NCBI GenBank assembly: GCA_028286605.1
Contig: JAQBRE010000002.1
Span: forward strand, 60,219 to 124,218
DNA: 64,000 nucleotides
Reading direction: 5' to 3'
Source: Parcubacteria group bacterium
GTDB lineage: Bacteria; Patescibacteriota; Minisyncoccia; Phycocordibacterales; Phycocordibacteraceae
Part shown: in pieces, positions 33,577-57,620 of the stretch
Position numbering within the stretch: the stretch's first letter is position 1
Layout of the letters: every line of letters begins with the position of its first letter
Position numbers and translations under genes: made by a program
Notes under the pieces: model-generated
Told to the model about the DNA's origin: nothing
Database searches by the model: none
Seen by the model: the letters and a program-made list of their open reading frames with translations, nothing else

Positions 33577-33816
33577 AAATGCTTATTATTAGGGGTGTGG
33601 ATACTGGGGAAAGAGCATTATCTCTAGTATATACGGTCTGGAATGGGTGTGCTCGTTATTCGGAAGCTGTGGGTACAGGCGTATAAGTCGGGTGTATAAA
33701 CGGGTGCTGGATTTTCTTCCCGAAGTTATCAGTCTTCTCTACCCTGCTTGTCCCCATCCTTGCTACCCCTGTTATCTCCAGCTTCTCCACATCTTTTCCC
33801 CAGAACTTATTCACAC
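33577..33816. promoter_or_regulatory. dnaA-dnaN intergenic region with several DnaA-box-like 9-mers (candidate oriC component)
   Basis: TGTGGATAC at 33596-33604, TTATCTCCA at 33772-33780, TTATTCACA at 33807-33815. Confidence 0.45.
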
Positions 33817-35169
33817 TCAAACAAGCAGAGTGCGAATGTCCTGAATCTCTTTCGCGAGTTCTGCATCCTCTGCGACTTCGCGCTTCACCTTTTCACATGA
33901 GTGAATGACAGTGGTGTGGTCACGTCCACCAAGCTTATTGCCGATAGTCGGATACGAGACGCTGAAGTCTTCACGAAGGATATACATGATCACTTGGCGA
34001 GGACGCACCACTTCCCTTCTACGGGTCTTCTCATAGATACTTTCCTCCTCGATGCCGTAGAACTCAGCAATTTTCGATACGACATGTTTAACCGATACTG
34101 TTTTGGAAGGACGAGAGAACGAACGGAGCGATTGTCGAACTTCAGCGATGTCTGGCGGCGTACCTTTTACCTGCGTATGGCAAACAACCGAGTTAAGAAC
34201 ACCCTCCAATTCACGGATAGAACCTGAAACAGAAGTAGCGATGTACTCAGACACCTCATCAGAGAGCATTACGCCGCTCATAGCAGCCTTCTTGCGTACG
34301 ATCTCGATACGAGACTCCATATCCGGCTCACCGATGTCTACGGTCATACCAGAAAGGAAACGGCCACGAAGGCGATCCATGATGTCAGGAATGTTTCCAG
34401 GTGCGCGGTCCGAGGAGAATACGATTTGCTTGTTGTTGTCGTACAGATGATTGAAAAGATGGAAGAGTTCCTCCTGGAATTTATCCTTCTTCGAAAGAAA
34501 CTGGACATCGTCCATAATCAGGAGGTCATACTGGCGATACTTTTCCTTAAAACGGTTCGCCGTACCGAGTTGAAGCGAGTCGGTGAAGTCCGTACCGAAC
34601 TTCTCGCTCGTTAGATAGAAGACTTTTCGGTTCGGATAGAGCTTCTTGTAGTGATTCCCTATCGCCTGAATGAGGTGCGTCTTTCCACGACCGGTATCTC
34701 CGTAGATAAAGAGAGGGTTGTACGTGATTCCAGGGCGCTCGATAGCCGCGCGAGCCGCCATATTGGCCACTTGGTTGAACGAACCGACGACGAACGTATC
34801 AAAGGTGTAGCGCGGGTTGAGATTGTCGCTCTTATTGATGTAAAACTCGTTGAGCGGGAGCTCCTGAGTAGGTTCGCGGCGCAGCCGCGACTCTTTGGGC
34901 TGCTTGCGCGCGATATCTTTTACGATCGTGTACTCGATATTCCTGAATTCGACAGAAACATCACGAACGATCTTCAAAAGGAGCGTGTTGAAATGCTTCT
35001 GATACCAATCCTTGAAGAACGGGCTCTGTACGCCGATGAAAACGATGCCGTCTTCGATCTTTATGATGGCGCTGGACTTGAACCACGTGTTGAAATTGGC
35101 AGGAGAGATAGAAAGTTCAACCTGCGTGAGGATGTATTCCCAAAGTTCATGCGGATCAGAACGGTTCAT
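33817..35169 (-). CDS. dnaA: Chromosomal replication initiator protein DnaA
   Basis: Walker A GDTGRGKTHL, AAA+ sensor motifs and a C-terminal DNA-binding domain (...VSYPTIGNKLGGRDHTTVIHSCEKV...). Confidence 0.95.
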   Translation of the reverse strand: MNRSDPHELWEYILTQVELSISPANFNTWFKSSAIIKIEDGIVFIGVQSPFFKDWYQKHFNTLLLKIVRDVSVEFRNIEYTIVKDIARKQPKESRLRREPTQELPLNEFYINKSDNLNPRYTFDTFVVGSFNQVANMAARAAIERPGITYNPLFIYGDTGRGKTHLIQAIGNHYKKLYPNRKVFYLTSEKFGTDFTDSLQLGTANRFKEKYRQYDLLIMDDVQFLSKKDKFQEELFHLFNHLYDNNKQIVFSSDRAPGNIPDIMDRLRGRFLSGMTVDIGEPDMESRIEIVRKKAAMSGVMLSDEVSEYIATSVSGSIRELEGVLNSVVCHTQVKGTPPDIAEVRQSLRSFSRPSKTVSVKHVVSKIAEFYGIEEESIYEKTRRREVVRPRQVIMYILREDFSVSYPTIGNKLGGRDHTTVIHSCEKVKREVAEDAELAKEIQDIRTLLV

Positions 35170-35274
35170 GCGGTCATTGTATCTCTGCCTGTGGATAACT
35201 CCAATAATTATGAAGATAGGCCGTTTTGTTGCATGCCAGAGCGCAACCTGTTAGTATCCTGTGTATAACTTCCT
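35170..35274. promoter_or_regulatory. Divergent dnaA / rpmH promoter region containing a perfect DnaA box
   Basis: TGTGGATAA at 35190-35198 and TGTGTATAA at 35259-35267, between divergent dnaA and rpmH. Confidence 0.5.
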
Positions 35275-35427
35275 ATGCCAAAGCGCACCTACCAGCCGAA
35301 GAAGCGTAAGCGCGCACGAACCCACGGATTCCGTGCTCGTTCCGCTACCCCCACCGGACGCCGCGTATTGCTCGCTCGTCGCCGTAAAGGCCGTGCAAGC
35401 CTCACGGTTTCTAAGAAAGTACGCTAA
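35275..35427 (+). CDS. rpmH: 50S ribosomal protein L34
   Basis: [50 protein letters not shown], a 50-aa ORF below the track cutoff. The track ORF 35261..35467 is in the wrong frame. Confidence 0.85.
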
Positions 35428-35756
35428 TGCTACCTCGCTCGCACCGCCTCCCTCGGGCCGGTTTTGAGCAGATTGCCGGCCTCAAGCGTTCCGCTAGCCG
35501 GCATTTTTCTATATCCTATATAGATAGCGCTCCGCTGGCCGGTGGCGCGGTGGTAGTGTCCAAAAAGGCTGCAAAACAGTCAGTGGACCGTCATCTCCTG
35601 AAGCGCCGCGTAAAGGCTGTGATGAAGCCGTGGTTGGTTTCAGGGCGGGTGCTGATAGTCCATGCTCGCACAGGTGCAATAACTCTTCCCTTTTCCGAAC
35701 TAGAGGCCGAACTGACGGCACTCTTACGACAATCGTTCGATTCCGGTACTATATAA
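35427..35756 (+). CDS. rnpA: Ribonuclease P protein component
   Basis: ATG overlaps the rpmH stop (TAATG). Basic 109-aa protein ...VVVSKKAAKQSVDRHLLKRRVK... in the classic rpmH-rnpA-yidC order. Confidence 0.85.
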   Translation: MLPRSHRLPRAGFEQIAGLKRSASRHFSISYIDSAPLAGGAVVVSKKAAKQSVDRHLLKRRVKAVMKPWLVSGRVLIVHARTGAITLPFSELEAELTALLRQSFDSGTI

Positions 35757-35759: not shown

Positions 35760-36488
35760 ATGATCGGCCACTTCTTCACCATCGTTCTCTACGCTCCTAT
35801 CTATAACCTCCTGATATTCCTCGTGGATATCCTTCCAGGTGGCGATATCGGCCTTGCCGTCATCATCGTTACTATCATCGTGAAGCTGGTTATCGCGCCA
35901 CTCACTATCTCTGCACTCCGTACCTCGCGTGCGATGCAGGCAATACAGCCTAAGTTCAAGGAACTACAGGAAAAATACAAGGATGATAAGGAATTGCAGG
36001 CGAAAGAGACCTTCGCGCTCTATAAGAAATACAAGATAAACCCGTTCGCGAGCATTCTGACGTTATTTATTCAGCTTCCAGTAATCATTGCGCTGTACTA
36101 CGTGTTCCGTCACGAGGTCGTTAAATTCGACCCTACGATTCTGTACTCATTCGTGCATGTACCGGCCGTAATCTCTAATAACTTCCTCGGTTTCTTCCCC
36201 CTTACGGCACATAACATAATCCTTGCTGCGCTCGCCGCAATAACGCAGTTCCTGCAGGCTAAATATGCGATGCCCGTACCGCCTTCAACGGGCCCCGACG
36301 CATCTGCGAGCGAGCAATTCAATCGCACTATGGCGATGCAGATGCGCTACATGCTTCCGCTATTCATCGGATTCATCGCGTATATTTCTTCAGGCGCTAT
36401 CGCGCTGTATTTCATAACGACCGCACTATTCACGCTCGGTCAGGAACTTTTCATGCGAAAGCTGCCCAAGGTTGTCGTTGAAGACTAA
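35760..36488 (+). CDS. yidC: Membrane protein insertase YidC/Oxa1 (short form)
   Basis: 242 aa, multi-TM, conserved hydrophilic-groove region, directly after rnpA. Confidence 0.85.
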   Translation: MIGHFFTIVLYAPIYNLLIFLVDILPGGDIGLAVIIVTIIVKLVIAPLTISALRTSRAMQAIQPKFKELQEKYKDDKELQAKETFALYKKYKINPFASILTLFIQLPVIIALYYVFRHEVVKFDPTILYSFVHVPAVISNNFLGFFPLTAHNIILAALAAITQFLQAKYAMPVPPSTGPDASASEQFNRTMAMQMRYMLPLFIGFIAYISSGAIALYFITTALFTLGQELFMRKLPKVVVED

Positions 36489-37696
36489 AGGTCGTACTCC
36501 CAAAGCGAACCAGTCTTCTTGTCTGTAAATACCAAGACATCTTCCTTCGGATCGACGGTCAGTGAAACCGCATCGATAGAAGTCTTCGCAACAGCAGTAG
36601 GGTCAACGATGAGCGTTGCAACGCGTGCAGTCATGTCGATGCGCCAGATACGGTCAGTGAAGGACACGGCACCCTGATACCAGTCGTCTGGAAGATTTCC
36701 TGAACCAAGATCCGTCGGTACGCCGCAGTACACCGTTACTTCGTCTGCCCAAACGCACTTTTCTGTAAGAGTGGCAAGCGGAAGCGCTGTTGCAGAATGA
36801 GTCGCAATATTTATAACTGCCAGATGCACGACACCGCCATCTACATAGCTATAGAGGAGTGATTTTCCAGACGGGCTCGGTAGAAGCGTGAGGCCAGCAA
36901 GAGGCCCGAGTATTCGCGTGAATGAATTTCCATTGATTTGGAACCCGTACCCGAACGTCGCACTCGATGCTTTCGTATGTGCAAAATAGGTATTCCCTGC
37001 CGGATATACGATGAGCGAAGAAACGAGCGAAGTGAAAAGCGTGCGAGGGCTTGAGCCATCGATTTTAGAAACCGTTCCCACCGAACCGCTCGTGCTCGTA
37101 AGTAATGTAAATAGTCCAGTTGAGCTGGCGACACGTGCCTCAGCAAGATCCTGCTCAAGGAAATATCCACCGTTTCCATCTGAAGGAAGCGCATAGGTTG
37201 CGACATGTTCGCCATCAGTCGCGTTCGTCGTGATGAACTGCACATATGCCATAGAACCGTTCGGAACCCATGATGCCACCTGAATACCTGGCAGTGTTTT
37301 GTTAGAGCGGCGCGTAAGCGTACGGGCATGTGCGATGTAGCTGTAGATATTGCCGCTAGCGCGATCTATGAAACGCACGTCTACGTCTGGTGTGGTCGGC
37401 GTACTGCTACTTGTCGTTGCGCCATTCGTCGGTATCGCGATATTTACATCTACCGCAGCAACACCTTCAGCGACAGGGCCATCGGTAATCTTTACGAAGT
37501 TCGGCGCAACGATGGTGCCAGCACCTTGGCCCTCTGTAAGGCCACCCGGAGTCGTCGTACTGCTTCCCGCATTAGCAAATGGATTACCAACCGTAAGCGT
37601 CCCCGCCTTCGGCGCAAAGAATAAGTAATACGCACCGATCGCCAGCCCGATGATGACGATGATTGCTGCAACAATGATAAGGATTCGACGCATCAT
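36485..37696 (-). CDS. Membrane-anchored extracytoplasmic protein, last gene of the T4SS-like operon
   Basis: N-terminal TM (ILIIVAAIIVIIGLAIGAYYLFF), then a 370-aa Thr/Ser-rich beta-type domain. Confidence 0.5.
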   Translation of the reverse strand: MMRRILIIVAAIIVIIGLAIGAYYLFFAPKAGTLTVGNPFANAGSSTTTPGGLTEGQGAGTIVAPNFVKITDGPVAEGVAAVDVNIAIPTNGATTSSSTPTTPDVDVRFIDRASGNIYSYIAHARTLTRRSNKTLPGIQVASWVPNGSMAYVQFITTNATDGEHVATYALPSDGNGGYFLEQDLAEARVASSTGLFTLLTSTSGSVGTVSKIDGSSPRTLFTSLVSSLIVYPAGNTYFAHTKASSATFGYGFQINGNSFTRILGPLAGLTLLPSPSGKSLLYSYVDGGVVHLAVINIATHSATALPLATLTEKCVWADEVTVYCGVPTDLGSGNLPDDWYQGAVSFTDRIWRIDMTARVATLIVDPTAVAKTSIDAVSLTVDPKEDVLVFTDKKTGSLWEYDL

Positions 37697-37699
37697 ATG

Positions 37700-38410
37700 T
37701 TAATTCTTACCGCAGCACTGATACCCAACGACCTGACCAAGAGCTGGGTTAGCGTTACAGCATGATTGAGGAATTACTCCTTCTCCGGAGGGGCACATCG
37801 TTGTGGTTGGAGAATTGGTAATAGTTTTATACTGACACTGATTCTGATTCTGCGTAGAAGAGATACACGTGCTATTGCTGCAGACATCAGTACCAGTACA
37901 CGCTGGCGAACAGCTCGACATGCCATATACGCCACCTGTCTTGTCTGCGTTCGGTACTGTTGAACCGTTCGTAAGAGGCGTAACTTGAACATCACCCCCT
38001 GTACCGTTTTTGCTCTGCAGGCCTGTAAAATTAAGGCTTATATTAAGAATCTTCGGATTGATGACGCTGAATACCACGAACGGAGAGAGCACCAGTACAA
38101 GACCAAGAATCGCATTCATGATCTTTGCACGCGCTTTCGTATTTTTGGAAACGCTGTCCGCACTGCCCATAAAGATGAAGCCTGCCCAAATTATCTGAGC
38201 AATAGCGAAGAACGCAGCAAGACCGATGCTGATGCGATACAGGTTGTTTATGAAAGATGGTAACGATATGGCATTTGCCGCAACCGTAGAAAGGCCGGGA
38301 AGCTGCGTAAGCGGTACGAACTGGTCGTCGGCGAATGCGAGAAGTGGTATTGAAATCGCGACACCGCTTGCGACGAATGCTGCTGCAGTTATAAGGGTGG
38401 AACGTTTCAT
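37700..38410 (-). CDS. Candidate VirB2/TrbC-like pilin with a Cys-rich C-terminal extension
   Basis: Signal peptide, then two closely spaced hydrophobic helices (ISIGLAAFFAIAQIIWAGFIFMG and IMNAILGLVLVLSPFVVFSVI) as in T4SS pilins, then a Gly/Thr/Cys-rich tail (about 14 Cys). Confidence 0.4.
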   Translation of the reverse strand: MKRSTLITAAAFVASGVAISIPLLAFADDQFVPLTQLPGLSTVAANAISLPSFINNLYRISIGLAAFFAIAQIIWAGFIFMGSADSVSKNTKARAKIMNAILGLVLVLSPFVVFSVINPKILNISLNFTGLQSKNGTGGDVQVTPLTNGSTVPNADKTGGVYGMSSCSPACTGTDVCSNSTCISSTQNQNQCQYKTITNSPTTTMCPSGEGVIPQSCCNANPALGQVVGYQCCGKN

Positions 38411-38413
38411 ACT

Positions 38414-39427
38414 CTATAGACCAAATATACCAAGAGATTTCTTCGCGCCGAACTGAACGGTCATGGAAGTATCTCCGAGCTGGCTAGTATCTGACTGTTT
38501 TGCTTCGAAACCGACTACTGCCGTTCCGGAACCTGCGCCGTTTGAACGAACGGTAATATCCTGCCCTGCCTGACTCGCCACATCATTAACCGTCCAGGTG
38601 AGTGACGGTGAACCGGTGAAGTAATAAGGCACGCCACGGAAGGTATCCTCTGCATCGCTCATAGCGATGGTATCTGGAAGCGCATAGTTGAATAGAGGAC
38701 CAAGGAGCGGATCATTCTGATAGATGCGCACGATAGGGCTTACCGGCGATATGAAAGCAGACGCCTGTGCAACGCCGCTGCTGTCAGGGGTAGCAACCGT
38801 TACGGTAATCGTTGCGTTGCGGTACTGCACGGGAGCTGTCGCAGTGAGTACGGATTTTCCGATGCCTGAATCACTTTCAAGAATCTGGTCACCGTTTTTC
38901 CACGTATACACAAGGCTTGAAGCAGGAACAAGCGCTCCTGATGCGGTGCGCAGGTTTGGTAATGCGACGAGCCGTACAAGGCCTCCAGAGGCCACAAGTG
39001 ATGCTCCGTGATAAAACGGATGCGATGTAGAAACAGGCTCTACGATAAGCGCCACATCAGCGGGGCGAATAACAAGGCTCTGGCTATAAGTCTTTCCATC
39101 GCTGGTAACTGCCACAACTTTGATCGTACTTGCGACGCCCGCGGCACCTGCTTGTACCTGTACGGGCGCTGAGCCACTTCCCTTCTGTATGACTGTTCCA
39201 TTCACAGAAATAGTCACCTGACTTGAAGAAAGGTCGATAAGCGTGCTATCAGGCGTTACGGTAACCGCTTGATAGGGTGCTGGGTACTGTGGGTCGATGG
39301 AAACAGTAAGTGGGTCTGTACCAGCTGGTACTTGCTGAGCGAATACAGGATGAGCGCCTGTAAGAAGGAGTAGGGCTGCAAAGACGAAACCAGCTTTCAT
39401 TGTGTACAGTATAGCGCGTTTGCGCAT
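38414..39427 (-). CDS. Secreted beta-rich protein (Ig-like repeats), T4SS-associated
   Basis: Signal peptide AGFVFAALLLLTGAHPVFA. Repetitive V/T/S-rich beta pattern. Confidence 0.5.
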   Translation of the reverse strand: MRKRAILYTMKAGFVFAALLLLTGAHPVFAQQVPAGTDPLTVSIDPQYPAPYQAVTVTPDSTLIDLSSSQVTISVNGTVIQKGSGSAPVQVQAGAAGVASTIKVVAVTSDGKTYSQSLVIRPADVALIVEPVSTSHPFYHGASLVASGGLVRLVALPNLRTASGALVPASSLVYTWKNGDQILESDSGIGKSVLTATAPVQYRNATITVTVATPDSSGVAQASAFISPVSPIVRIYQNDPLLGPLFNYALPDTIAMSDAEDTFRGVPYYFTGSPSLTWTVNDVASQAGQDITVRSNGAGSGTAVVGFEAKQSDTSQLGDTSMTVQFGAKKSLGIFGL

Positions 39428-39435
39428 GCCACTGC

Positions 39436-39837
39436 TTATGCGGCTCGGGATAGAGGTGGCCTGCGAACGTTATCATTTGCTGCTTTTGCTGCCGATTCCT
39501 TTTCTTCTCCCTTCGCGTCTTGGTCCAGAAGATAGTATGTGGTTCCGAGCTGTATGGTGAGTGCTGGTATAAAATCATCAAGCCCAGGAGCTACATTAAC
39601 AACGCCGTTGACAATAACATTGGCCATTTTCTGCGCAGATCTTTTCCCTCCTATATATTTTGGTCCTACACGAATGAAGAAATAAAGATTCAAAGAAATC
39701 AGACCGAACATCTTTAACGGCCAGCCAAGAAGATCAATGCCAGGTATCCAGCAGATGGCCATGCACGCAAGATCAATCGCAGCCGTGAACATATACAGGA
39801 ACATCTTTTCGATCGAATCGATTTTCCCTGAATCCAT
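39436..39837 (-). CDS. Small polytopic membrane protein, T4SS-associated
   Basis: 133 aa with three hydrophobic segments, immediately downstream of the VirB4 ATPase gene. Confidence 0.5.
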   Translation of the reverse strand: MDSGKIDSIEKMFLYMFTAAIDLACMAICWIPGIDLLGWPLKMFGLISLNLYFFIRVGPKYIGGKRSAQKMANVIVNGVVNVAPGLDDFIPALTIQLGTTYYLLDQDAKGEEKESAAKAANDNVRRPPLSRAA

Positions 39838-39843
39838 AGCGGT

Positions 39844-41667
39844 CTATGCTGAGCCTGCTGCGTCCTGACGCATCTTTTCCTGTTGTATCTGCAGAAGCTG
39901 CGACGGATCGGAGGTGATTATCTGATCTTCTGTATACGAAGCGACTATCTTGATAGCGGCGTGTTTCAAACCGGCGAAGAAGAGGCCCTCCCCCACTCCT
40001 GATTCAAGCAGGAGGTATTTTTCTTCATCAGTAAGACCGAATGTTTCCTGAAGAACGTCCACTGTTGTCGGCGATTGCTTAAGCAGCAGCTGCATCGAAG
40101 AGTTCGTAAGGATCGGACGACCATACGGGCTGCGAAGGAAGTCCTCCACGTCCTGTGTGATAGTGGCGAGACCAAGGAAGTACTTACGACCACGCTTCGC
40201 CAAACTGAATAGAAACGAGGCTGTGTCTTCAGACTTCATCATCCACCACGCCTCATCAATAATGAGCAGGCGTTTCTTCAGTTCATGCCGTACGGAATTC
40301 CATATATAGTGCGTAACGATATACATCGCGACCGGCTTGAGCTCGTCCTCCATGTCACGCACAGAGAACACGACGAACTGATTATTGATATCAACGTTTG
40401 TTGGCTGGTTCAGGAAGCCTGCCCATGTGCCCTTCGTGTATTTCGAAAGACGCTGCACGAGCGAGGTGGAACCCTCCATGCCCGAAAGAACACTTTCGAA
40501 ATCGGAAAGAAGCGGTGGTTCTACGCCGGTGAAATCCGTATCGCCGCTAATATCTTTCAGCGCGTAGGTTTCAGAGATCGCGCGGTCTATGATTGCGTCC
40601 TCTTCCGGCGTGAGGCCGCCGAGCATGATACGGAACAAGCCCACGAGGTTGATGATCGTGCTGCGCAGGATATCTGCAGGGTTTTCGTCCTCACGCACCG
40701 GCGGAAGATCAAATGGATTAATGTGGTTCTCGCTTGAAAGCGAAATATTGAACATCTTGCCGCCGGTTGCCTGTGCAAGGTATTCATATTCACGTTCAGG
40801 ATCGATAACGATAACTTCCGTATCAAACATGAGCGAACGAAGGATTTCCAGTTTCACTGCGTAGGACTTTCCAGAACCAGACTTCGCGAAGACCACGGAG
40901 TTGTAGTTCTCAAGAGAGAAGCGATCAAAGAGGATCAGCGATGCATTGTGACGGTTAATGCCATACAGGATGCCGCGATCACTTGAAAGGTCGAACGAAA
41001 CGAATGGGAAGATGCTAGAAAGCGGGGATGAATTGAGCTTGTTCGTAACGGCGAGCTCATCTATAGCGAGCGGTAGCGTTGAACGGAAGCCTTGTTCCTG
41101 CTGGAACAGTGCGGGTTTCGTATACACGAGCTTTGAATCAAGGATGCCGCGCAAGTCCCCCTCTACCTTGTCTAGCTCTTCTTTCGTAGACGCATACATA
41201 GTGATGTACAGGCCAACTTCGAACAGTTTTTCCTGCGCCTGTTGCAGATTATCGCGCAACGTTTCAAGGTCTTGATATGCCGTATCAAGCATGGGGTCAC
41301 GAACGAGGCCGCGCCCTTCTCGCTCTGCTATCTGGCTCTGTACCTCAGCCACTTTCTTCTGGAAATTACGCAAAGCGTCGGCCGTGTCGATTGGATTAAC
41401 GAATATAGATACGTCGAAGACCTTATCCAGGTTGATGATAGGTGTGAACCAGCCGTCTGAAAGGAATCGAGGATAGGAGATCGTATAAAAGGAACGGGCT
41501 ACCTTCTCACCAAGCTCTATCTCACGTGAGCTCACCTTGAGCGCCGCAGGCGCGATGGTGTCCGCCAGATCAAGCGTACCCTGCGCGTAAATATCTTTCG
41601 GCAGCACTGGCGCAACGACGGGTGCGTCTTCTTTTTTGCCACGGTTTAGGAAGTCGAGAAGTGCCAT
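39844..41667 (-). CDS. VirB4/TraE-type T4SS ATPase (body: region with YPRF...DGWF motif plus ATPase domain)
   Basis: ...SFYTISYPRFLSDGWFTPIINLD...ILYGINRHNASLILFD...VFAKSGSGKSYAVK (Walker A)...LLIIDEAWWMM (Walker B). Layout is typical of Gram-positive-type VirB4. Confidence 0.85.
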   Translation of the reverse strand: MALLDFLNRGKKEDAPVVAPVLPKDIYAQGTLDLADTIAPAALKVSSREIELGEKVARSFYTISYPRFLSDGWFTPIINLDKVFDVSIFVNPIDTADALRNFQKKVAEVQSQIAEREGRGLVRDPMLDTAYQDLETLRDNLQQAQEKLFEVGLYITMYASTKEELDKVEGDLRGILDSKLVYTKPALFQQEQGFRSTLPLAIDELAVTNKLNSSPLSSIFPFVSFDLSSDRGILYGINRHNASLILFDRFSLENYNSVVFAKSGSGKSYAVKLEILRSLMFDTEVIVIDPEREYEYLAQATGGKMFNISLSSENHINPFDLPPVREDENPADILRSTIINLVGLFRIMLGGLTPEEDAIIDRAISETYALKDISGDTDFTGVEPPLLSDFESVLSGMEGSTSLVQRLSKYTKGTWAGFLNQPTNVDINNQFVVFSVRDMEDELKPVAMYIVTHYIWNSVRHELKKRLLIIDEAWWMMKSEDTASFLFSLAKRGRKYFLGLATITQDVEDFLRSPYGRPILTNSSMQLLLKQSPTTVDVLQETFGLTDEEKYLLLESGVGEGLFFAGLKHAAIKIVASYTEDQIITSDPSQLLQIQQEKMRQDAAGSA

Positions 41668-41670
41668 AAA

Positions 41671-42306
41671 TTATGCAGTGAATGAAATAGGGTTTTCCAT
41701 CTCGCCCAAATTGAAGGAACGGTACAGGAGCTCGATGATCTCTTCGGTACCGAGTGGCACAGCACGCAGCCCTGCACTTCCGAGCCCTCCTGCCACCAGC
41801 GCCATACGCTGCTCGAGCTGCACGCGGCTCTCTTCAAAACTCACGTCGACACCCGGTGCTGCAGCAACCGAACTCTTTCCTATTCCCGCAAAGGCACCCT
41901 TAACCGAAACGGCTGCACTGTTCGTTGAATACGGAACCACGATATAGAACGTCTTCGTCATAATGTCCGACCCCTCGATGAAATTACGGATGAACTGAAT
42001 GTATTCACGAAGCTGAATACGCATAAGTTCGCTGGTCTGATGCTCGAGCCGTTCACTCAGCAAGTTCAGATACGGACGAATATCCGTCTTGCGCGAATGG
42101 ATGACGATCTGCACCGTGAAATCGAGCGTATTAAGGAAATTCTGGAACCCGCCGATGATCGCCTTCTGTTCGTCTTCCGATTTCAGCGCGAAGTTAAGCG
42201 AAGAACACATCATGATGCCGCGATAACCGCCCTCCTTAAGGATAACGACACCGTTCCGAACTTCGGAAACCGGTACGAATGCTTGGGTTGGTTTTGGTGT
42301 AGCCAT
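41671..42306 (-). CDS. VirB4 N-terminal region encoded as a separate ORF, in frame with and 3 nt from the downstream ATPase ORF
   Basis: ...VPVSEVRNGVVILKEGGYRGIMMCSSLNFALKSEDEQKAIIGGFQNFLNTLDFTVQIVIHSRKTDIRPYL... resembles the extreme N-terminus of long (about 800-aa) Gram-positive VirB4 proteins. Ends with TAA 41671-41673, followed by TTT and the ATG of the next ORF in the same frame. Confidence 0.6.
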   Translation of the reverse strand: MATPKPTQAFVPVSEVRNGVVILKEGGYRGIMMCSSLNFALKSEDEQKAIIGGFQNFLNTLDFTVQIVIHSRKTDIRPYLNLLSERLEHQTSELMRIQLREYIQFIRNFIEGSDIMTKTFYIVVPYSTNSAAVSVKGAFAGIGKSSVAAAPGVDVSFEESRVQLEQRMALVAGGLGSAGLRAVPLGTEEIIELLYRSFNLGEMENPISFTA

Positions 42307-42307
42307 A

Positions 42308-42724
42308 TTAAAGGGTTTCGGGCGGTTTGGTGTGATCCTGAATATCCAGGGACCATGCAAGATCCTTCAGTTTTCCTTGTGAAAGGCCCAGTTTCTCACG
42401 AACGGGCGCAACAGTAGCCTGAACGATGGCAGGAGTCTCTGATTTCTGCTCTTTTTTCCAAAGATAGAGGCGTCCTCCTGTGTAGTAGATGAAACCTGCT
42501 TCAAGAATATCAAGGAAACTCTTGTTGTTTACCTTATAGAATGCAAGCGCTAATGCGAGGCCCATAATTGGTACGGAAAGCGCTGCGCCGATGATGAATG
42601 GAAGATAGAGAATGAGACCGACGCACATACCGACACCGCCTGCCAGGAATACGAATTGGCGCAGCGTAAGCGGGCCGAATATTTTATTCTCTACTTCGAT
42701 GAACTGAGGAACCTGATACTCCAT
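42308..42724 (-). CDS. PrgI-family (VirB3-like) small T4SS membrane protein
   Basis: MEYQVPQFIEVENKIFGPLTLRQFVFLAGGVGMCVGLILYLP... matches the PrgI-family start (M.Y.VPk...e.kifg.lT.RQ) and two-TM topology. Sits directly upstream of VirB4, as in Gram-positive T4SS. Confidence 0.6.
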   Translation of the reverse strand: MEYQVPQFIEVENKIFGPLTLRQFVFLAGGVGMCVGLILYLPFIIGAALSVPIMGLALALAFYKVNNKSFLDILEAGFIYYTGGRLYLWKKEQKSETPAIVQATVAPVREKLGLSQGKLKDLAWSLDIQDHTKPPETL

Positions 42725-42771
42725 TGCTACGAGTATACCAGTTCGTTGCGCATGCTTCCTTACTCTTGAAC

Positions 42772-43650
42772 TTATTCTGGAGCCTCGCGATACGGATCCA
42801 TGCCGTATTCCTTCACAATTGGCACTGCAGGCGTGTTCGGCGTACTAAATGAAGATGACTGACCGGGAAGATTCGACGGAATCGGCACAGAAGCAGCGCG
42901 TGGCTGATAGGGCGGGATTACTGCGGGCGGAACGAACGCAGGTGCAATCGGCGCGGCAATCGGCATTGGTGGTGCAGGCGGCAAAACAGCGGTAGGAAGA
43001 GTAAATGGAACGCCCGTATTCGGTACGGATGATGTTTGGAATGAGCGTGCGGGCGAGGATGGCTGCCAGGTCGGTTGCGCAGTACGGATCGTCGTCGTTT
43101 CCTGCGGTGCATGAGGATGCTTGGCCATTTCTTTAGCAAGTTCCATATCGTGCACCATAGTACGGATTACCGGTTGTGCCGCAACCGGTGCTACAGGAAT
43201 ACTGGTGGGTGGTGGAGCGAAGGGGGCAGGAGCCGCTGGCGCGAATACCTGCATTGGCGGTGCAACTGGTCGTGCTGGCGCAGGAATAGGGGTACTGGCA
43301 AGAACTGGTGTCACAGAATCCGTACTCTGTTCCTCGTGTTGTAGCTGCTTGAAGACGCGCTCATTCACATCTGTCGTGAGTCCGCGTACCGCAGCATCAG
43401 GAATACCTGCATCACGCAGCTCCTGCACGAACTCATCCGGTGTATACACACCCAACAACATATATAGGTATGAGCGTTCGAACACTCCCGCCTGATCAAT
43501 GCGCAACAAGTATTTTGCACCTAGTTCCGCCGCTACAGCGTCACGCTGAGGACTACGTAGAAAATCTTGCAATGGTTGTGGCAACTCTTGCATCAACACG
43601 GCCATCTGCTCCGCTAAGGTTAGCTCTTCAGGAATCTGATTCTCATCCAT
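42772..43650 (-). CDS. Proline-rich hypothetical protein, T4SS-associated
   Basis: Start moved to MDENQIPEEL (ATG 43648-43650) to avoid overlap with the upstream gene. The C-terminal half is PAxP-rich. Confidence 0.45.
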   Translation of the reverse strand: MDENQIPEELTLAEQMAVLMQELPQPLQDFLRSPQRDAVAAELGAKYLLRIDQAGVFERSYLYMLLGVYTPDEFVQELRDAGIPDAAVRGLTTDVNERVFKQLQHEEQSTDSVTPVLASTPIPAPARPVAPPMQVFAPAAPAPFAPPPTSIPVAPVAAQPVIRTMVHDMELAKEMAKHPHAPQETTTIRTAQPTWQPSSPARSFQTSSVPNTGVPFTLPTAVLPPAPPMPIAAPIAPAFVPPAVIPPYQPRAASVPIPSNLPGQSSSFSTPNTPAVPIVKEYGMDPYREAPE

Positions 43651-43690
43651 TACTGTAGTATCGCTCCTAATGTACATTATTTCCACTGAA

Positions 43691-46036
43691 CTACGCAGCT
43701 GGAGGTGGAGCATCTTCTTCTTTTTGGGCATCTATTGCCTCACTAAGCTTATCGGAAATTTCAGCTTCCTTTGCATTGCCATCACTAATTGCTTTACCCA
43801 AATCCTTAAAAAGGCTTTCAGATTTTGTTTGCTTTAGGCTCCTCTTAATTGCATTTGATGCCTCTCTTTCTGGACGACCAGTGAGGAATCCTGGAACAAA
43901 TGTACGGGCTTTCGAAAGATTATCAGCATATCTTCCCTGACGACTGCTTAGCAATATTTTTCTATCCAGAGCATCTGAATCAACCTTGTATTTCCTCTCT
44001 TCAGCAACTTGCTTGTCGGTAATTTCCTGTAGATCGTTGCTGTATTTGTCAGCGGTTGCAAGATACTCTGCGCGTGATGTCTTGAGTTTGTCTGCATTAC
44101 TTACTAGGGTAGACTTCTGTGCGGTTAGCGCATTTATCTTGGTGCTTGAGATCAATGTTTCCTGTGTTTGGCCTTGTCTGAACAATTCATCATGATTAGC
44201 TGTTTCAGCAGCTATCTCGTTAGTAAGGCGGACATACTCTGGATCCTCTTCACCCGATGCGACCTTCTTTTCAAGATCAGAAATTGAATTCGCATAAGAA
44301 TTTCTGGCATTAACGAGAGAGTCTCTCTTATTCTTACTGTCTGTTTGTGCTGTTTTGTGAGCAGTATCAGTGTTCTTTTTCTGCTCTTTAAGAGCTTTAG
44401 CCTCAGCATCCTCTGTTGGATTTGGTTTAATCGAGTTCGCATAGTCCGTGCGCGCCTTGATATCTTTCTTCTCAATTTCGGCATACCCGCCGGCTGCAGT
44501 TTTGCCAGGCTTACCAAGATCTATCTTTGCAGCCTTGGTAATATTTCCCGCGAACTTGGTTGCGCGAGGATCGAAGCTTGATTTCGCACCCCTATCAGCA
44601 ATCGATGCAAGCCGGCGTCCCATTTCTGTATCAGCAAGTCCTGGAGTATTGCGTATGCTGCGTCCTATAGCAGCAGACCCTGCGCCAACAGTGCGTCGTG
44701 CAACGAATGCACCGCTTCCAAACGCGACGCCGCCCGCTGTCTTTATCGCGAAGTCTGCACCCATAGCACCGAATTTCTTCGCAGCCATAAGCGCCCCAAT
44801 GAGGCCGGCAATAATAAGTAAGAACACCATGATAATTCCCATGTTGTCGGTACCCGGACCGGTCAGTGCACTCGCGAGCCCATTATTATTCGATACTGAT
44901 GAAAAGCCTTCGGTTACCTTAAGATCTATAAAAATCAGCAAGAATAAAATAGGCGCGAAGAATGCCTGATGTATAAGCGTGTTCCACCAGCCTTTCGCTA
45001 TTTTCTCGAGGGGCGGGAGTGCCATTCCAGCGAACCCTATCGGGGAAAGGACGATAAGGCCGGTAAGAACGACGGCGCGCCAGGCAAGCATAAGCGCCGC
45101 CGCTAAAAGAACAACCGTACCGACTATTGAGAACAGCGAAAGGCCGATTAGAACCAAGGCTTTGTTCGTGACCGTAACAGTACCGCCAGTCTTAAGTGCG
45201 TAGATACCAGAAAGTCCGGTTGACTCCATGATGTGTCCGGCAATACCACTATTAATATTGCAGCTAGTCGTTACGCACGGGTCGGTATTTGCCTGTGCGT
45301 ACAGCGCGGAGGTTAGAACGTTGGAAGTATCAATAATTGCTTCTGCAGCGAAGATACTGAAATTCAGAAGTATCGCGAAAATTATGAGCTTCGGTATCGC
45401 TTTCTTGTCTGCAAATTTTCCCGTATCAAGGATAATGCTGATGCCCATAAGTACGAAGCCGAACAGAAGGATCAGATTTCCGATATCGCGCAGTATTCCC
45501 CAAGCAGTAAGGAGGCCTGCAGAATTTCCTATAAGAGTTGAAAATTGGAATACCGTTTTAACTATGACCCAGTTCAGCAATGTTCCTGCAATCGCAAGAA
45601 TAAAGTTCGTGAAGGTAATGATGAATGTCGCCACGACATTCAAGATACAATCTCCTATGTTTGAGATTCCGCAGCCGGTGGTCGCCCCACCTCCTGCAGC
45701 AGGCGCAGGCGCTGCGGCCGCAGGTGTCGTTGCAGTAGGGGCGCCGCCGAATTCAGTCTGCGCAGCCGCAGCGCTTGCATCGATAGCGGCATTGCTTCCA
45801 GTGAAGTTTACGCTGCCGTCAGCGTTAGTGGGTACATCTGATGCAGACAAGTTTGATAATCCAGACGCATCAGGAAGCGTGGCAGTTACGTTTCCAATAC
45901 CAGTCGATGCCGGAGGCGTAGCTGCCGGAGGTGTTGCGGCCTGCGCATGTACAAGCGTTGGTGCGACAACAAAGAGCGCCGCGAACAGCAGCGTTCCTGT
46001 CAGAAGCGAGCGAATTCCTAGAGCGAAAGTTCTCAT
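43691..46036 (-). CDS. VirB6/TrbL-like polytopic T4SS membrane protein with a long C-terminal coiled-coil/hydrophilic domain
   Basis: Signal/TM N-terminus and at least 6 TM helices in the central 350 aa (...FIITFTNFILAIAGTLLNWVIV...). C-terminal 300 aa is K/E/A-rich and predicted helical. Confidence 0.6.
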   Translation of the reverse strand: MRTFALGIRSLLTGTLLFAALFVVAPTLVHAQAATPPAATPPASTGIGNVTATLPDASGLSNLSASDVPTNADGSVNFTGSNAAIDASAAAAQTEFGGAPTATTPAAAAPAPAAGGGATTGCGISNIGDCILNVVATFIITFTNFILAIAGTLLNWVIVKTVFQFSTLIGNSAGLLTAWGILRDIGNLILLFGFVLMGISIILDTGKFADKKAIPKLIIFAILLNFSIFAAEAIIDTSNVLTSALYAQANTDPCVTTSCNINSGIAGHIMESTGLSGIYALKTGGTVTVTNKALVLIGLSLFSIVGTVVLLAAALMLAWRAVVLTGLIVLSPIGFAGMALPPLEKIAKGWWNTLIHQAFFAPILFLLIFIDLKVTEGFSSVSNNNGLASALTGPGTDNMGIIMVFLLIIAGLIGALMAAKKFGAMGADFAIKTAGGVAFGSGAFVARRTVGAGSAAIGRSIRNTPGLADTEMGRRLASIADRGAKSSFDPRATKFAGNITKAAKIDLGKPGKTAAGGYAEIEKKDIKARTDYANSIKPNPTEDAEAKALKEQKKNTDTAHKTAQTDSKNKRDSLVNARNSYANSISDLEKKVASGEEDPEYVRLTNEIAAETANHDELFRQGQTQETLISSTKINALTAQKSTLVSNADKLKTSRAEYLATADKYSNDLQEITDKQVAEERKYKVDSDALDRKILLSSRQGRYADNLSKARTFVPGFLTGRPEREASNAIKRSLKQTKSESLFKDLGKAISDGNAKEAEISDKLSEAIDAQKEEDAPPPAA

Positions 46037-46042
46037 AGGTGG

Positions 46043-47608
46043 TTATATGCTCGTGCTGCAGAGTCCTGAAAGCGTCGTGTAGAGCGAAGTAGTGCTGCCC
46101 ACGGCGGGATTACTTTGTATTTGAGCATCAATACTATCAGTGGTCTGTATATATCCGCCTGTTGTGGTGGCAATAAGGTTCTGGTATTGCGTGGATACCG
46201 CAGCAAGTACTGAAGGATCGGTGGAAGCTGCCGCTGCGTTTGCTGCGGTGCTTATAGTGGTGAGCGCACTGACGGCAGCGTTCCCGCGAGCAATATTCGT
46301 GTTTGACAACGTCAGCGCTGCCGCAACCTTTGGATCAGAGCTTATGCAGCTCCGTGCAATTGATTGGAGTTTCTGCCAATTGGCAAGATATGCTTGCGCC
46401 GTTCCAATATCGTTCGTCACGCTTTGTACGAACCCTGCAGCAAGACCCGGCTGTGCATACTGCGAAGGGTTTGTCGCTTGAGCAAGCGGTGATAGGCCAC
46501 CACCCGCAGAAGGTTGTGAAACACCAGAGAGACCAACGGCGCCCACCACCTGAGTTACGAGCTGGCTTGCAAGCGCGCCAACGATTTCATTTATGGAATT
46601 AGCGAGCTCAAGCTGACGAAGAGGAGATGTGGCCGTTATGCCGAGCGTGTTTTCAATAACCGTACCCGGTGTTCTGATGGAGTTGGAAGTGCAGTTATCT
46701 GCGCTGCTAAGGGACGTTAGGGAGGAGGTGTCGACATTGCTGAGTGAGCCGCCACTGTAATCAACGCTGCCATCAGCGTTAGTGGGAACACTGAGAGGAC
46801 CGTTAAGTGCTGATGGGTCTGTTATTTTTGTCGTTACGGGACCTATACCAGATGAAGTTTTTGATGCGGTGGACGTACAAGAACCACGCCATGACATGAA
46901 GCCCTTTCCCCAGTTCAATTCATTCAAACGATTCGTGGTTGCTGCATAGACCGTCGCATTAAGCGCTTGCTGTTGTGAGTAGGCTGCACCATAAGGATTG
47001 TTCTGATTGTTTCCAACCGCGGCGAACCATGCATTGAAGCCGCCATTCGATGCGAATTTGCCAGCCAGGAAGCCTGCAGGATTATTGCTGAATTGGTTAA
47101 GACTATACCCGCCAGTCACTGATCTTCCGGTGGAACTGTAATACTCGTTGCGCAAACCCTGCGAGACCACATCCTGGAATGGTGACTTCACTCCCCCGCT
47201 CGTATTATTAGCAATCGCATTAAAGAAGCTATTTGCAACCCCATCGCTCACACCCAGAAGATTCTGATTAATGTTCGTTACGAATGAAGGCGAGCCGTTG
47301 AAACCAGAATTAATCCAGGTAATCATACTCTTCGTAATAGCCTGAATAACAGCTTTTGCGACGGCCCACGCAATACCGTTCAATATTTTTGTTATGACTG
47401 TTTGCGCCGTGGTATTACCTGCAGTAATACCAGCAGGGACTGCTGTAGCGCTAATGGCAGCAAGGACAGCAACATCAGTAACCGGAAGCTGCGCATGTGC
47501 GTATTCAACAGAGTCTGGAAGTATAGGAGCAAAACTCAATGTACAAACAAGCATCAAACAGCTAGCCGCAATGCCGAGACGAACGGATGTTTTTCGGTAG
47601 AGGCTCAT
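46043..47608 (-). CDS. Secreted Ala/Ser/Thr/Gly/Asn-rich protein, T4SS-associated
   Basis: Signal peptide LGIAASCLMLVCTLSFAPILP. Shares the peptide VPTNADGSV(D/N)(Y/F)(S/T)G with the adjacent VirB6-like protein. Confidence 0.55.
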   Translation of the reverse strand: MSLYRKTSVRLGIAASCLMLVCTLSFAPILPDSVEYAHAQLPVTDVAVLAAISATAVPAGITAGNTTAQTVITKILNGIAWAVAKAVIQAITKSMITWINSGFNGSPSFVTNINQNLLGVSDGVANSFFNAIANNTSGGVKSPFQDVVSQGLRNEYYSSTGRSVTGGYSLNQFSNNPAGFLAGKFASNGGFNAWFAAVGNNQNNPYGAAYSQQQALNATVYAATTNRLNELNWGKGFMSWRGSCTSTASKTSSGIGPVTTKITDPSALNGPLSVPTNADGSVDYSGGSLSNVDTSSLTSLSSADNCTSNSIRTPGTVIENTLGITATSPLRQLELANSINEIVGALASQLVTQVVGAVGLSGVSQPSAGGGLSPLAQATNPSQYAQPGLAAGFVQSVTNDIGTAQAYLANWQKLQSIARSCISSDPKVAAALTLSNTNIARGNAAVSALTTISTAANAAAASTDPSVLAAVSTQYQNLIATTTGGYIQTTDSIDAQIQSNPAVGSTTSLYTTLSGLCSTSI

Positions 47609-48627
47609 TGTGTTTGAGAAGCGCGCGCGACGCTTACGATCAGTGCGCCAGGTGTGCCTGGTGCAGGCTCTCCACCACTAGCGATGATTGCCTGCGCGAG
47701 GCTTTGAAATGTTGTGACGATAGTCTGCGATGTTGGTACGTAGAGCGAGAGTGATCCGAGAACTGCAAGCGGATCTTTACTGTAATTATTCACGGCGTTT
47801 GTTGAGCGCGCGAGCGTATCGAACGATTGCACGAGCGCGAGGTGCTGTGCGGCAAGTGCGGGCGGAACGGGCACTTGGATAAGATCTTTCGTGATTTTTG
47901 TATACGAAGCACCAAGCACGACAAGCTGCGCTTGTGCTTTCGTATCATTGTTCTGAAGGAATCCCTGCATGAGCGGTACCGGTTCAGCACTGCCCGAAGT
48001 AACATCATCCGAACGGAACACTTGTTCTATTGCTGCGGCATATCCAAGGACGGTCGCTGTTGGTGACACATGTATAGAAATGGAGGTATAGGGAGAAATA
48101 AGAAGCGCGCTCGCTTTCTTGCTGTAGCTCGCAAGAAGCTGCGTTTCTAGTGCCTGTTGCTGGGTATCGGTAAGCGCGCTGCCGTCGCCACTGGCTGCCT
48201 CAAAATCCTGCATGAACTCCTGACCGAACTGATCGGTGAGGCTGCCTGGTGCTGGGTCGGGGCCAGGAACTTCCGAACCAGCGTCAGCAGGATTTATGGG
48301 TGTGTCTTGTACGGGAGTAGGAACAGATGCAGAAGTTTTCGGCGTAACGAGACCCTTGCTTACCGCTTCGCTGTCGGTGAGCGTTGCGCTAACAGAGTGC
48401 GCATTGTTGGGATCAGTACCGTAGAGCGCTTCTTGCCAGTCCGGCAAGCCGTCGTTATCAGAATCTTTCGCTGAGTATGCTTTGAGTAGCTCATCAGTAG
48501 ATTGCGCGTTCGCGATCTTGCTTGAGAAAAACGGGACGGGCCCTGAAGAAATGTAGGCGCAGCCAACGAGCACCACTGAAAGTGCAGAGGCTGCGATGAT
48601 ACGGACCGTTCGAGAAGAAAACGCCAT
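47605..48627 (-). CDS. Putative lipoprotein (lipobox LVGC), first gene of the T4SS-like operon
   Basis: Start moved to MAFSSRTVRIIAASALSVVLVGCAY (ATG 48625-48627). Contains an acidic DxDxDG-like DSDNDGLPDWQE motif. Confidence 0.5.
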   Translation of the reverse strand: MAFSSRTVRIIAASALSVVLVGCAYISSGPVPFFSSKIANAQSTDELLKAYSAKDSDNDGLPDWQEALYGTDPNNAHSVSATLTDSEAVSKGLVTPKTSASVPTPVQDTPINPADAGSEVPGPDPAPGSLTDQFGQEFMQDFEAASGDGSALTDTQQQALETQLLASYSKKASALLISPYTSISIHVSPTATVLGYAAAIEQVFRSDDVTSGSAEPVPLMQGFLQNNDTKAQAQLVVLGASYTKITKDLIQVPVPPALAAQHLALVQSFDTLARSTNAVNNYSKDPLAVLGSLSLYVPTSQTIVTTFQSLAQAIIASGGEPAPGTPGALIVSVARASQTQ

Positions 48628-48704: not shown

Positions 48705-49493
48705 TTATGCGAGAAACTCCGCGAGTCTTCGCCACGTGCCAAGTGAAACGTCTTCCGGACGGATGTCTTTATTCAGTGCAGCACTCTCGAAGGCACTCGC
48801 GATACGTTCTGCAGGCGCGACGACCTCAAGATTCTTCGCCAATCGCTTTCGTTTATGGGCAAAGCCCGCACGAAGTATGGAAAAGAAGGCTTCTTCCTGG
48901 CCAGGCTTGGAAAACATGGCCGGATCGATGTCTCGGATGGCGAGAACAGCGGAATCGACGTTGGGCGCGGGGCGGAACGCCCCGCGCGGTACGGTAAAGC
49001 AGTATTCAGGCCGTCCGAAGACCTTCACGGCCAGCGAAAGCAGGCTTTCCTTCTTGCTACGGGCGATACGCTCAGCCACCTCCTTCTGAACGAGAAGTGT
49101 CATAGAGGCTGGCTTATGTGTTGCGGTAAGGAACGCGCGGATAATCTCACCGGTGATGTAGTACGGAATGTTCGCAATCAGGTGGTACTCCCCTTTTATG
49201 GTCGAAGGATCGAATTCACGAACGTCGCCATGAATGAGTTTGAGCGATCCGTTCGCGATTTCTGTGGCGAACGTCTCTTCGAGCTGCGGCGCAAGCGTGT
49301 CGTCTGCTTCTATGGCAATGACGTTTTTTACATGCGTACTCGCGAGCAGTGCGCGCGTAAGCATACCGGTACCGGGACCGATCTCGAATACGGTTGCGCC
49401 TTCGGGCAGCTTCGCTACGTCTACGATACGCTCCGCTATTTGCGGATGCATCAGGAAGTTCTGACCGAGGGATTTCTTCGCGATGAATGCCAT
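48705..49493 (-). CDS. rsmA: 16S rRNA (adenine1518/1519-N6)-dimethyltransferase RsmA/KsgA
   Basis: Start moved to MAFIAKKSLGQNFLM (ATG 49491-49493), followed by ...VFEIGPGTGMLT... SAM-binding motif. Confidence 0.85.
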   Translation of the reverse strand: MAFIAKKSLGQNFLMHPQIAERIVDVAKLPEGATVFEIGPGTGMLTRALLASTHVKNVIAIEADDTLAPQLEETFATEIANGSLKLIHGDVREFDPSTIKGEYHLIANIPYYITGEIIRAFLTATHKPASMTLLVQKEVAERIARSKKESLLSLAVKVFGRPEYCFTVPRGAFRPAPNVDSAVLAIRDIDPAMFSKPGQEEAFFSILRAGFAHKRKRLAKNLEVVAPAERIASAFESAALNKDIRPEDVSLGTWRRLAEFLA

Positions 49494-49500
49494 GACTCTA

Positions 49501-57465: not shown

Positions 57466-57620
57466 ACTACCACGCCTTGATTATTTGCGCAAGGGTGGTG
57501 TGGTCCGAAACGCCTCCTCTGTCGGCGGCGCTCCGGGCCGCTCGGCCAAGTCTTACCACCTCCAGACGAGGCATTTCGGACACACTACGTCGTAAAATTA
57601 TCATAGGCTATACTAGATAT

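Follow-up and report, generated by a model that had tools for sequence, protein, structure and literature searches.

In the 64,000-nucleotide stretch of a Parcubacteria group bacterium analyzed here (contig JAQBRE010000002.1; hereafter, the window), eleven minus-strand genes at positions 36485–48627 encode what we read, with a probability of about 0.8, as an intact chromosomal type IV secretion system (T4SS) of the Patescibacteria clade. It would derive from MPF_FATA conjugation machinery and now be a vertically inherited housekeeping locus beside the replication origin (oriC). All eleven open reading frames (ORFs) are intact and co-directional, and the gaps between them in the ORF list are -4 to 47 nt; an earlier sequence-only reading had placed eleven minus-strand genes at the same coordinates. 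The genes are called g1 to g11 below, in order of transcription. Their core products are a PrgI/VirB3 protein, a TrsD-like protein, a VirB4 ATPase, and an extended VirB6-like channel protein, accompanied by a VirB2-like pilin and six lineage-specific proteins. Every headline element has already been published (2023, 2025), and the locus is one real instance, not a new kind.

Patescibacteria account for a considerable part of bacterial diversity; they are ultra-small and host-dependent. To our knowledge, their T4SS is the only one known to be essential for its own carrier. The present locus is a clean and complete example from Paceibacteria, showing the "split" VirB4 as the normal state. An ATPase more conserved than DnaA, combined with fast-evolving exposed parts, fits a core machine in host-specific contact. 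The six conserved neighbors offer well-defined targets to structural and genetic studies; the family of one of them comprises over 5,700 sequence clusters.

Proteins encoded by the locus

The VirB4 ATPase (g7, 39844–41667, 607 aa) is of the MPF_FATA/CD1110 type. It matched the CD1110 family profile NF045971 with 380 bits (cutoff 325) over profile positions 182–728 of 752, and the Pfam family P-loop_TraG at 3e-25. In tblastn, it aligned with residues 228–772 of pCF10 PrgJ at 26% identity (E 1e-36). Its Walker A (GSGKS, aa 264) and Walker B (IIDEAW, aa 469) motifs are intact. The TrsD-like protein (g6, 41671–42306, 211 aa) is homologous to the N-terminal domain of VirB4 and is encoded by a separate, conserved gene. 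It matched positions 11–161 of the same 752-position CD1110 VirB4 profile (NCBIfam, 1.5e-6), so that g6 followed by g7 is collinear with the full-length VirB4 profile. Other NCBIfam matches of g6 were the VirB4 of the Mycoplasma integrative and conjugative element (ICE; 6e-9) and TrsD NF041427 (1e-3). A total of 3,819 homologues of g6 were found; the best 120 of them are mostly 205–214 aa long (a few 179–191 aa), and all 120 carry the TraC-like family PF26593.

In the window, g6 and g7 lie in the same frame, with TAA TTT ATG between them. To place this arrangement, we compared related loci: one scan of species-representative genomes gave 591 relatives of g7, of which the best 80 were used. The TrsD-like gene was separate from virB4 in all 80 loci. 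The spacer between the TrsD stop codon and the virB4 ATG was 1–6 nt in 60 of them, and across the 80 loci all three frames and all three stop codons were used. Because g6 has 3,819 homologues, the best of which are mostly of its own length, because it matches TrsD, and because the spacers fall in every frame, the shared frame in the window is best regarded as a coincidence. TrsD and VirB4 are, by the same comparison of genomes, read as a conserved two-gene unit with a normal architecture. The spacers of the relatives rule out that the in-frame TAA marks a pseudogene or a recoding site. The sequence-only reading had listed a split VirB4; the VirB4 assignment stood (NF045971, P-loop_TraG), whereas the split or damage did not. 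According to a published survey, no T4SS component is more abundant in Patescibacteria than TrsD, which is described there as distantly homologous to the N-terminus of VirB4 (PMC12102498).

Upstream of the TrsD-like gene lies g5 (42308–42724), which encodes a PrgI/VirB3-like protein of 138 aa with two transmembrane (TM) helices forming a hairpin. The PrgI/VirB3 label given to it earlier was confirmed by Pfam PrgI PF12666, which it matched at 1e-8 with 36 bits, above the gathering threshold of 27. In 78 of 81 loci, an equivalent of g5 directly precedes the TrsD-like gene.

The polytopic protein g3 (43691–46036, 781 aa) is an extended VirB6/TrbL-like protein, as judged from TM prediction, the Pfam matches of its family, and the fold of its AlphaFold2 (AF2) model. 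A signal peptide, about six TM helices (aa 132–419), and a coiled-coil tail of about 350 aa are predicted; the tail matched coiled-coil proteins only. Of 40 homologues of g3, 13 matched TrbL/VirB6 PF04610 (best 1e-6), and precomputed PF04610/PF19590 annotations are present on homologues. The AF2 model was made for aa 110–480 and had a predicted local distance difference test score (pLDDT) of 80.8. When its TM domain was compared with the PDB by Foldseek, the top five matches were all TrwI/VirB6 of R388 (probability 0.94–1.0, E 0.025–0.16). A direct hhalign comparison of the g3 family with TrwI was not significant (probability 0.6). Based on the Pfam matches in homologues and the fold ranking, the assignment of g3 as VirB6-like is supported at the level of family and predicted fold, with weak absolute scores. 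The earlier label of a VirB6/TrbL-like protein with a long coiled-coil tail, for which a structure prediction had been proposed, is therefore retained. Of the three assignments on which that reading depended, VirB4 and PrgI score above their cutoffs, and VirB6 holds by family and fold.

The pilin gene g10 (37700–38410) encodes a VirB2-like T4SS pilin with a signal peptide and a two-TM hairpin (aa 51–118). It matched Pfam T4SS_pilin PF18895 at 5e-6 (26.9 bits; threshold 26.6) and the NCBIfam Mbov_0395 pilin-like family at 3.5e-7. Its C-terminal tail of about 120 aa contains 10 cysteines, which bears out the earlier description of a pilin with a Cys-rich tail. Among 58 orthologues from loci L001–L079, this tail is hypervariable in both sequence and length (14–305 aa), and its cysteine counts are mostly even, with a median of 6 and a maximum of 16. 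In conjugative pili, as known from the F-pilus, the C-terminus of the pilin faces the outer surface.

The first gene of the upstream module, g1 (47605–48627), encodes an N-terminally anchored or secreted protein of 340 aa. It has an N-terminal hydrophobic segment, a TSP3 calcium-binding repeat at aa 55–76 (Pfam TSP3_bac, 4e-7), and an uncharacterized C-terminal domain, and its family profile matched the calcium-binding region of Bap at 1.5e-4. Orthologues hold the same position in 27 loci. The protein had previously been labeled a lipoprotein candidate. A lipobox-like LVGC is present here, but this label proved weak and was dropped because the cysteine is kept in only 3 of 28 orthologues.

The product of g2 (46043–47608, 521 aa) is a secreted, mostly helical protein rich in Ala, Ser, and Thr and belongs to a large uncharacterized family of 5,721 clusters at 50% identity; it had been described as secreted and Ala/Ser-rich. 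It had no match in Pfam, NCBIfam, or the PDB sequences. Its AF2 model had a mean pLDDT of 64.5; the only confident part was a C-terminal helical bundle (aa 386–520), and Foldseek found nothing in the PDB at E<1 for this model. Members of the family share a conserved core at the N-terminus, whereas their C-terminal module can be exchanged: some carry discoidin, Ig-like, or SdrD-B adhesion domains in place of the C-terminal bundle. We also considered g2 as a VirB5-like tip protein or as an analogue of VirB8 or VirB1, but profiles gave no match to PDB sequences or to any of the T4SS proteins of pCF10 and R388. A DUF4141 match in one g2 homologue was below threshold and covered the signal-peptide region only.

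The cytoplasmic protein g4 is rich in proline (16%), as had been noted, but its start was revised. The ORF reaches 43731, whereas 25 orthologues begin at the ATG at 43650, so that the gene probably spans 42772–43650. In the alignment of these 25 orthologues, a helical N-terminal domain of about 100 aa is conserved, the linker is hypervariable, and 24 of the sequences carry a DPYRE(P) motif at the extreme C-terminus; some additionally share an internal RTMAHDMEA.K motif. Neither a TM helix nor a signal peptide was predicted for g4, and it matched no Pfam or NCBIfam family.

Of the remaining accessory proteins, two are encoded upstream of the pilin gene and one at the end of the locus. A small, fast-evolving membrane protein of 133 aa with a predicted TM helix is encoded by g8 (39436–39837). 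In 50 of 75 loci, a protein with one or more TM helices was encoded at the corresponding position; sequence similarity was detectable in one only. The g9 protein (38414–39427, 337 aa) has a signal peptide and is predicted to be secreted and built of Ig-like beta-sandwich domains. The Ig-like label assigned to it before agrees with the match of its family profile to phage Hoc Ig domains (4e-5) and with matches of family members to BiPBP_C (10), Cadherin-like (4), Ig_3 (3), and PKD_6 (2); g9 was present in 79 of 81 loci. The last gene, g11 (36485–37696), encodes a protein of 403 aa with an N-terminal membrane anchor and a TolB-like beta-propeller. It had been described as membrane-anchored and beta-rich, and its family profile indeed matched eleven TolB sequences over the propeller domain (E 1.4e-3 to 3.2e-3), although 37 family members gave no Pfam match. 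It has a conserved cysteine pair (C314, C324) and was present in 67 loci. None of g1, g2, g9, and g11 resembled any T4SS component of pCF10 or R388.

Inheritance, genomic setting, and conjugation genes

The best 80 of the 591 g7 relatives all came from Patescibacteria or from metagenome-assembled genomes (MAGs) of uncultured bacteria, with VirB4 identities of 74%–91%. The labels of these MAGs included Paceibacterota, Kaiserbacteria, Nomurabacteria, Taylorbacteria, and similar names. The gene order pcrA-rsmA-g1..g11-yidC-rnpA-rpmH-dnaA-dnaN recurs in dozens of Paceibacteria species, and the syntenic relatives reach down to ~53% DnaA identity. The comparison with T4SS loci of related genomes that had been suggested thus yielded the same block with the same flanks across dozens of species. 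Because the whole block is syntenic in this way, the locus is best interpreted as a vertically inherited housekeeping locus and not an island. Its GC content (0.49–0.51) equals that of the rest of the window, with no compositional break. The claim that the cluster lies between housekeeping genes and not in an island is therefore upheld by both the uniform GC content and the synteny.

In 62 of 63 genome pairs, the identity of VirB4 exceeded that of DnaA; the median difference was 17 points, which is somewhat inflated because the loci were chosen by VirB4 similarity. In a distant group, VirB4 was 75% identical, compared to 53% for DnaA. VirB4 was also far more conserved than DnaN, YidC, RsmA, or PcrA. 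TrsD and PrgI were intermediate in identity, and every extracytoplasmic component fell to 23%–32%. This pattern indicates that the ATPase core is under strong purifying selection.

Upstream of the locus and on the same strand lie rsmA/ksgA (48705–49568) and pcrA (49501–51528), in an order that the relatives keep. On the other side, g11 converges on yidC (35760–36488, plus strand), beyond which lie rnpA (35427–35756, plus), rpmH (35275–35427, plus), dnaA (33817–35169, minus), and dnaN (32476–33576, minus), all assigned by ORF and synteny. DnaA-box clusters were located on either side of dnaA, at 33596–33815 and 35190–35268. Of the 11 DnaA-box matches in the window, 5 flank dnaA, including the sole perfect match. 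The cumulative GC skew reaches its minimum at 36–38 kb of the window. Based on the DnaA-box clusters and the skew minimum, the surroundings of dnaA are the probable oriC region, which the T4SS locus would abut. If oriC is located there, the pcrA-rsmA-T4SS unit is transcribed toward the origin, head-on to replication. The orientation of this unit was identical in all relatives examined.

The absence of a coupling protein and a relaxase from the 64 kb, as reported by the sequence-only reading, was corroborated by Pfam, tblastn, and phmmer. No VirD4/TraG-type coupling protein (T4CP, type IV coupling protein) or relaxase was found by Pfam in any window ORF of at least 300 aa or in several smaller ones. 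With PcfC and PcfG of pCF10 and TrwB and TrwC of R388 as queries, neither the window nor the sequence up to 10 kb from the locus in the 80 relatives yielded anything in tblastn and phmmer, apart from one marginal match. The survey counted 2,918 Patescibacteria genomes with VirD4-like genes among 3,035, and most of these genes lie far from virB4 (PMC12102498). Because these genes are usually distal, the local absence of a coupling protein should not be read as absence from the genome.

Relation to known systems and possible functions

The closest described system is the Patescibacteria-clade T4SS of Quinonero-Coronel et al. 2025 (Microb Genom 11:001409; PMC12102498), who surveyed 3,035 genomes and recovered a monophyletic VirB4 clade nested in MPF_FATA. 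In this survey, TrsD, PrgI, VirB6, and VirB2-like pilins are found near virB4, with almost no relaxases. In Paceibacteria and Microgenomatia, virB4 is located near dnaA, dnaN, rnpA, ksgA, and rpmH. The architecture, the lack of relaxases, and the proximity to dnaA are described there for more than 2,400 Patescibacteria genomes. The window locus shares with this system the MPF_FATA VirB4, the separate TrsD, PrgI, VirB6, the PF18895 pilin, the lack of a relaxase, and the dnaA context. We see no essential difference; the other neighbors, which are unannotated in the portions of the survey drawn on here, are described above. In the same portions, and in those of PMC10633639 that were used, we found no mention of the pilin tails, the g2 family with its swappable module, the DPYREP tail of g4, or the distinctness of g1, g2, g9, and g11, which we consider modest additions.

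An experimentally studied relative is the T4SS of the saccharibacterium Southlakia epibionticum ML1 (SEML1_0006–0019), which is Gram-positive-like and pilin-bearing (Wang et al. 2023, Cell 186:4803; PMC10633639). Transposon sequencing showed that this T4SS is essential for epibiotic growth (PMC10633639), unlike comEC and a distal T4CP of the same organism, which are non-essential (PMC10633639, PMC12857230). The Southlakia locus resembles that of the window in the order VirB6-like ... PrgI - TrsD-like hypothetical - VirB4, in its pilins, and in the lack of a local relaxase or coupling protein. In contrast to the window locus, it has six short pilins in an array, and peptidase and lysozyme genes are present alongside an NTF2-like (VirB8-type) protein. 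The window locus instead has a single pilin with a long Cys-rich tail, no recognizable NTF2 protein, and the Ig-like and propeller proteins.

Among the MPF_FATA prototypes, the Prg/Pcf system of pCF10 (Enterococcus) and the Trs system of pGO1 (Staphylococcus) share homologues of PrgI, PrgJ/VirB4, and TrsD with the window locus, as well as a monoderm architecture without VirB7, VirB9, and VirB10. Compared to pCF10, however, the window operon has nothing that matches PcfC (T4CP), PcfG (relaxase), PrgK (hydrolase), PrgL (VirB8-like), or the PrgB adhesin. It also differs from the Gram-positive systems in having a VirB2-like pilin, which they lack, and in being chromosomal and vertically inherited. 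The Mycoplasma ICE (Mbov_0395 pilin-like, Mbov_0397 VirB4) gave the best or near-best NCBIfam matches of the pilin and the TrsD-like protein, far below the cutoffs. Its VirB4 is a single protein of 894 aa, and these elements are mobile. The Trw system of R388 (VirB/D4-type, MPF_T) provides the closest structural match to the TM domain of g3 and, like the window locus, has a VirB2-type pilin. In contrast, g1, g2, g9, and g11 showed no similarity to the other Trw proteins, and the window locus has no outer-membrane core, VirB11, or VirD4.

From what is known of T4SS biology, TrsD and VirB4 would together form one VirB4-type motor docked on PrgI and VirB6. This motor could extract the pilin from the membrane and build a short pilus or a conduit through the wall. 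The exposed, fast-evolving parts, namely the Cys-rich tail of the pilin, the C-terminal module of g2, the Ig-like protein, and the propeller, would then touch the host surface. Rather than conjugating DNA, the machine may then pass proteins or other cargo that is not DNA between host and epibiont, in either direction. This agrees with the earlier interpretation of a chromosomal T4SS for cell contact or effector delivery rather than conjugation, which fits the synteny, the composition, the lack of an associated relaxase, T4CP, or integrase, and the published view. A further extension of this model is doubtful. If the pilin C-terminus faces outward here too, a hypervariable, disulfide-rich tail on every pilin subunit might, in Paceibacteria, build host recognition into the pilus itself. 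Together with g2, the Ig-like protein, and the propeller, it might form an undescribed extracellular apparatus that sets the host range, with g4 acting as an adaptor that replaces the coupling protein or as a conserved secreted substrate.

Several observations weigh against the interpretation of the locus as an intact, dedicated non-DNA transfer system. The essentiality data come from Saccharimonadia, another class, and function has been demonstrated in no Paceibacteria T4SS. The pilin exceeds its Pfam threshold by just 0.3 bits. The g3 protein itself matched no Pfam family, TrbL included, and its structural similarity to TrwI is weak in absolute terms (E 0.025–0.16, TM-score 0.3–0.47). No VirB8-like or VirB1-like component was recognized in the operon by sequence or profile comparison with PrgK, PrgL, TrwN, and TrwG. 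A VirD4-like gene is likely to be present elsewhere in this genome, in which case transfer of DNA or T4CP-dependent transfer would be conceivable. Finally, a Kaiserbacteria-like subgroup (L016–L041, e.g., L018 1–9000) has only g5–g11 beside yidC and dnaA; the g1–g4 module, including VirB6, is not upstream of PrgI, where other ORFs are found. Because g1–g4 are not adjacent in this subgroup, the eleven genes appear to be two separable modules rather than one obligatory operon.

Four other explanations were weighed against non-DNA transfer at the host interface, which we favor. That the locus belongs to an ordinary ICE, with a relaxase, a coupling protein, and an integrase just beyond the window, might be suggested by the similarity of VirB4, PrgI, and TrsD to Gram-positive conjugation proteins, which are their closest relatives, by the common occurrence of VirD4-like genes somewhere in Patescibacteria genomes, and by two recombinases in the window, a serine recombinase (3368–5107) and an XerC/D-like integrase (57456–58544). 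However, these recombinases are 9–30 kb away, with housekeeping genes between them and the locus, and neither a T4CP nor a relaxase was detected in the regions searched. Moreover, synteny of the locus and of both its flanks extends over dozens of species, to DnaA identities as low as 53%; its presence at the same site in sister genomes is largely shown; there is no compositional break; and the slower evolution of VirB4 relative to DnaA is not typical of a mobile element. We therefore reject the ICE as very improbable. The notion of a decaying remnant, with VirB4 broken by the in-frame TAA, is rejected as next to impossible. It draws on the two VirB4-related ORFs being in the same frame with TAA TTT ATG between them, but the two-gene layout occurs in 80 of 80 loci with all frames and all three stop codons. 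Furthermore, the eleven ORFs and the Walker motifs are intact, and VirB4 is 74%–91% identical across species.

The two live rivals concern what the machine does. It could be an uptake machine that imports DNA in the manner of ComB or Ced systems, or lipids, nucleotides, or other host molecules, instead of exporting effectors. Patescibacteria lack de novo synthesis of nucleotides, lipids, and amino acids, and neither effector-like genes nor a T4CP were found at the locus. A 2025 review gives the same account of the T4SS as the published work above and raises the speculative idea that its pilus might serve as a conduit, either for signals or to take up material from the host (PMC12857230). There is also a weak resemblance of VirB4 to CedB, an ATPase of archaeal DNA import (6e-9 over 70 residues), but this is far below the cutoff and confined to the shared P-loop region, and the NCBIfam matches of the locus include no other Ced or ComB family. 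In addition, Saccharibacteria take up DNA by type IV pili and ComEC, and deletion of comEC is viable whereas the T4SS is essential. We know of no T4SS that imports non-DNA cargo. On balance, uptake is unlikely. Even less probable, though likewise kept in view, is an organelle for pilus formation and adhesion only, in which the VirB4 motor builds a VirB2-type filament for attachment or host recognition without translocation. The Cys-rich pilin tail, the adhesion modules of g2 relatives, the Ig-like protein, and the propeller look like surface-contact parts, and there is no local T4CP; in Gram-negative VirB systems, VirB4 without VirD4 suffices for pilus biogenesis. However, the conserved VirB6-like channel with its long cytoplasmic tail and the cytoplasmic Pro-rich protein with its invariant C-terminal motif point to a role beyond building a filament. 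Members of this phylum already have type IV pili for adhesion, and the window encodes PilM and PilB.

Neighboring genes and other features of the window

Divergent from the locus, 3 kb upstream of it and just upstream of pcrA, a LysM and M23 peptidoglycan peptidase is encoded at 51871–52899 on the plus strand (Pfam Peptidase_M23 3e-30, LysM 1e-26). By tblastn, it was detected in two loci, L003 and L006, and in both its position is the same as here. The survey reports VirB1-type matches with M23/LysM domains near virB4 in Paceibacteria (PMC12102498). It is possible that this peptidase is a stand-in for VirB1 and perhaps the wall-opening enzyme of the T4SS. The next gene (52901–54448) encodes a ComM/YifB-type Mg-chelatase-like ATPase, and a 512-aa ORF at 54912–56450 (minus strand) had no Pfam family at E<=0.001. 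Within the T4SS locus itself, an Rfam search gave no match, and a scan for promoter and terminator consensus sequences was uninformative.

At the other end of the window, the serine recombinase mentioned above is a large protein with Resolvase, Recombinase, and Zn_ribbon domains. Its gene lies inside a low-GC stretch at 1009–5149 (44.6% at 2001–4000), together with two ORFs without a family match (1009–1785 and 1939–2661) and a LOOT RNA motif (1747–1858, minus strand). Genes for tRNA-His and tRNA-Leu (5076–5287) are located at its end. No relaxase was seen in this stretch, whose distance from the T4SS locus exceeds 30 kb; it is possibly a small integrated element.

The window also contains type IV pilus genes identified by Pfam, namely those for PilM (8607–9809) and a PilB/T2SSE ATPase (21381–23099). 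Two small membrane-protein ORFs (7491–8656) are located downstream of PilM. This genome thus bears type IV pili and a T4SS together, as reported for Saccharibacteria.

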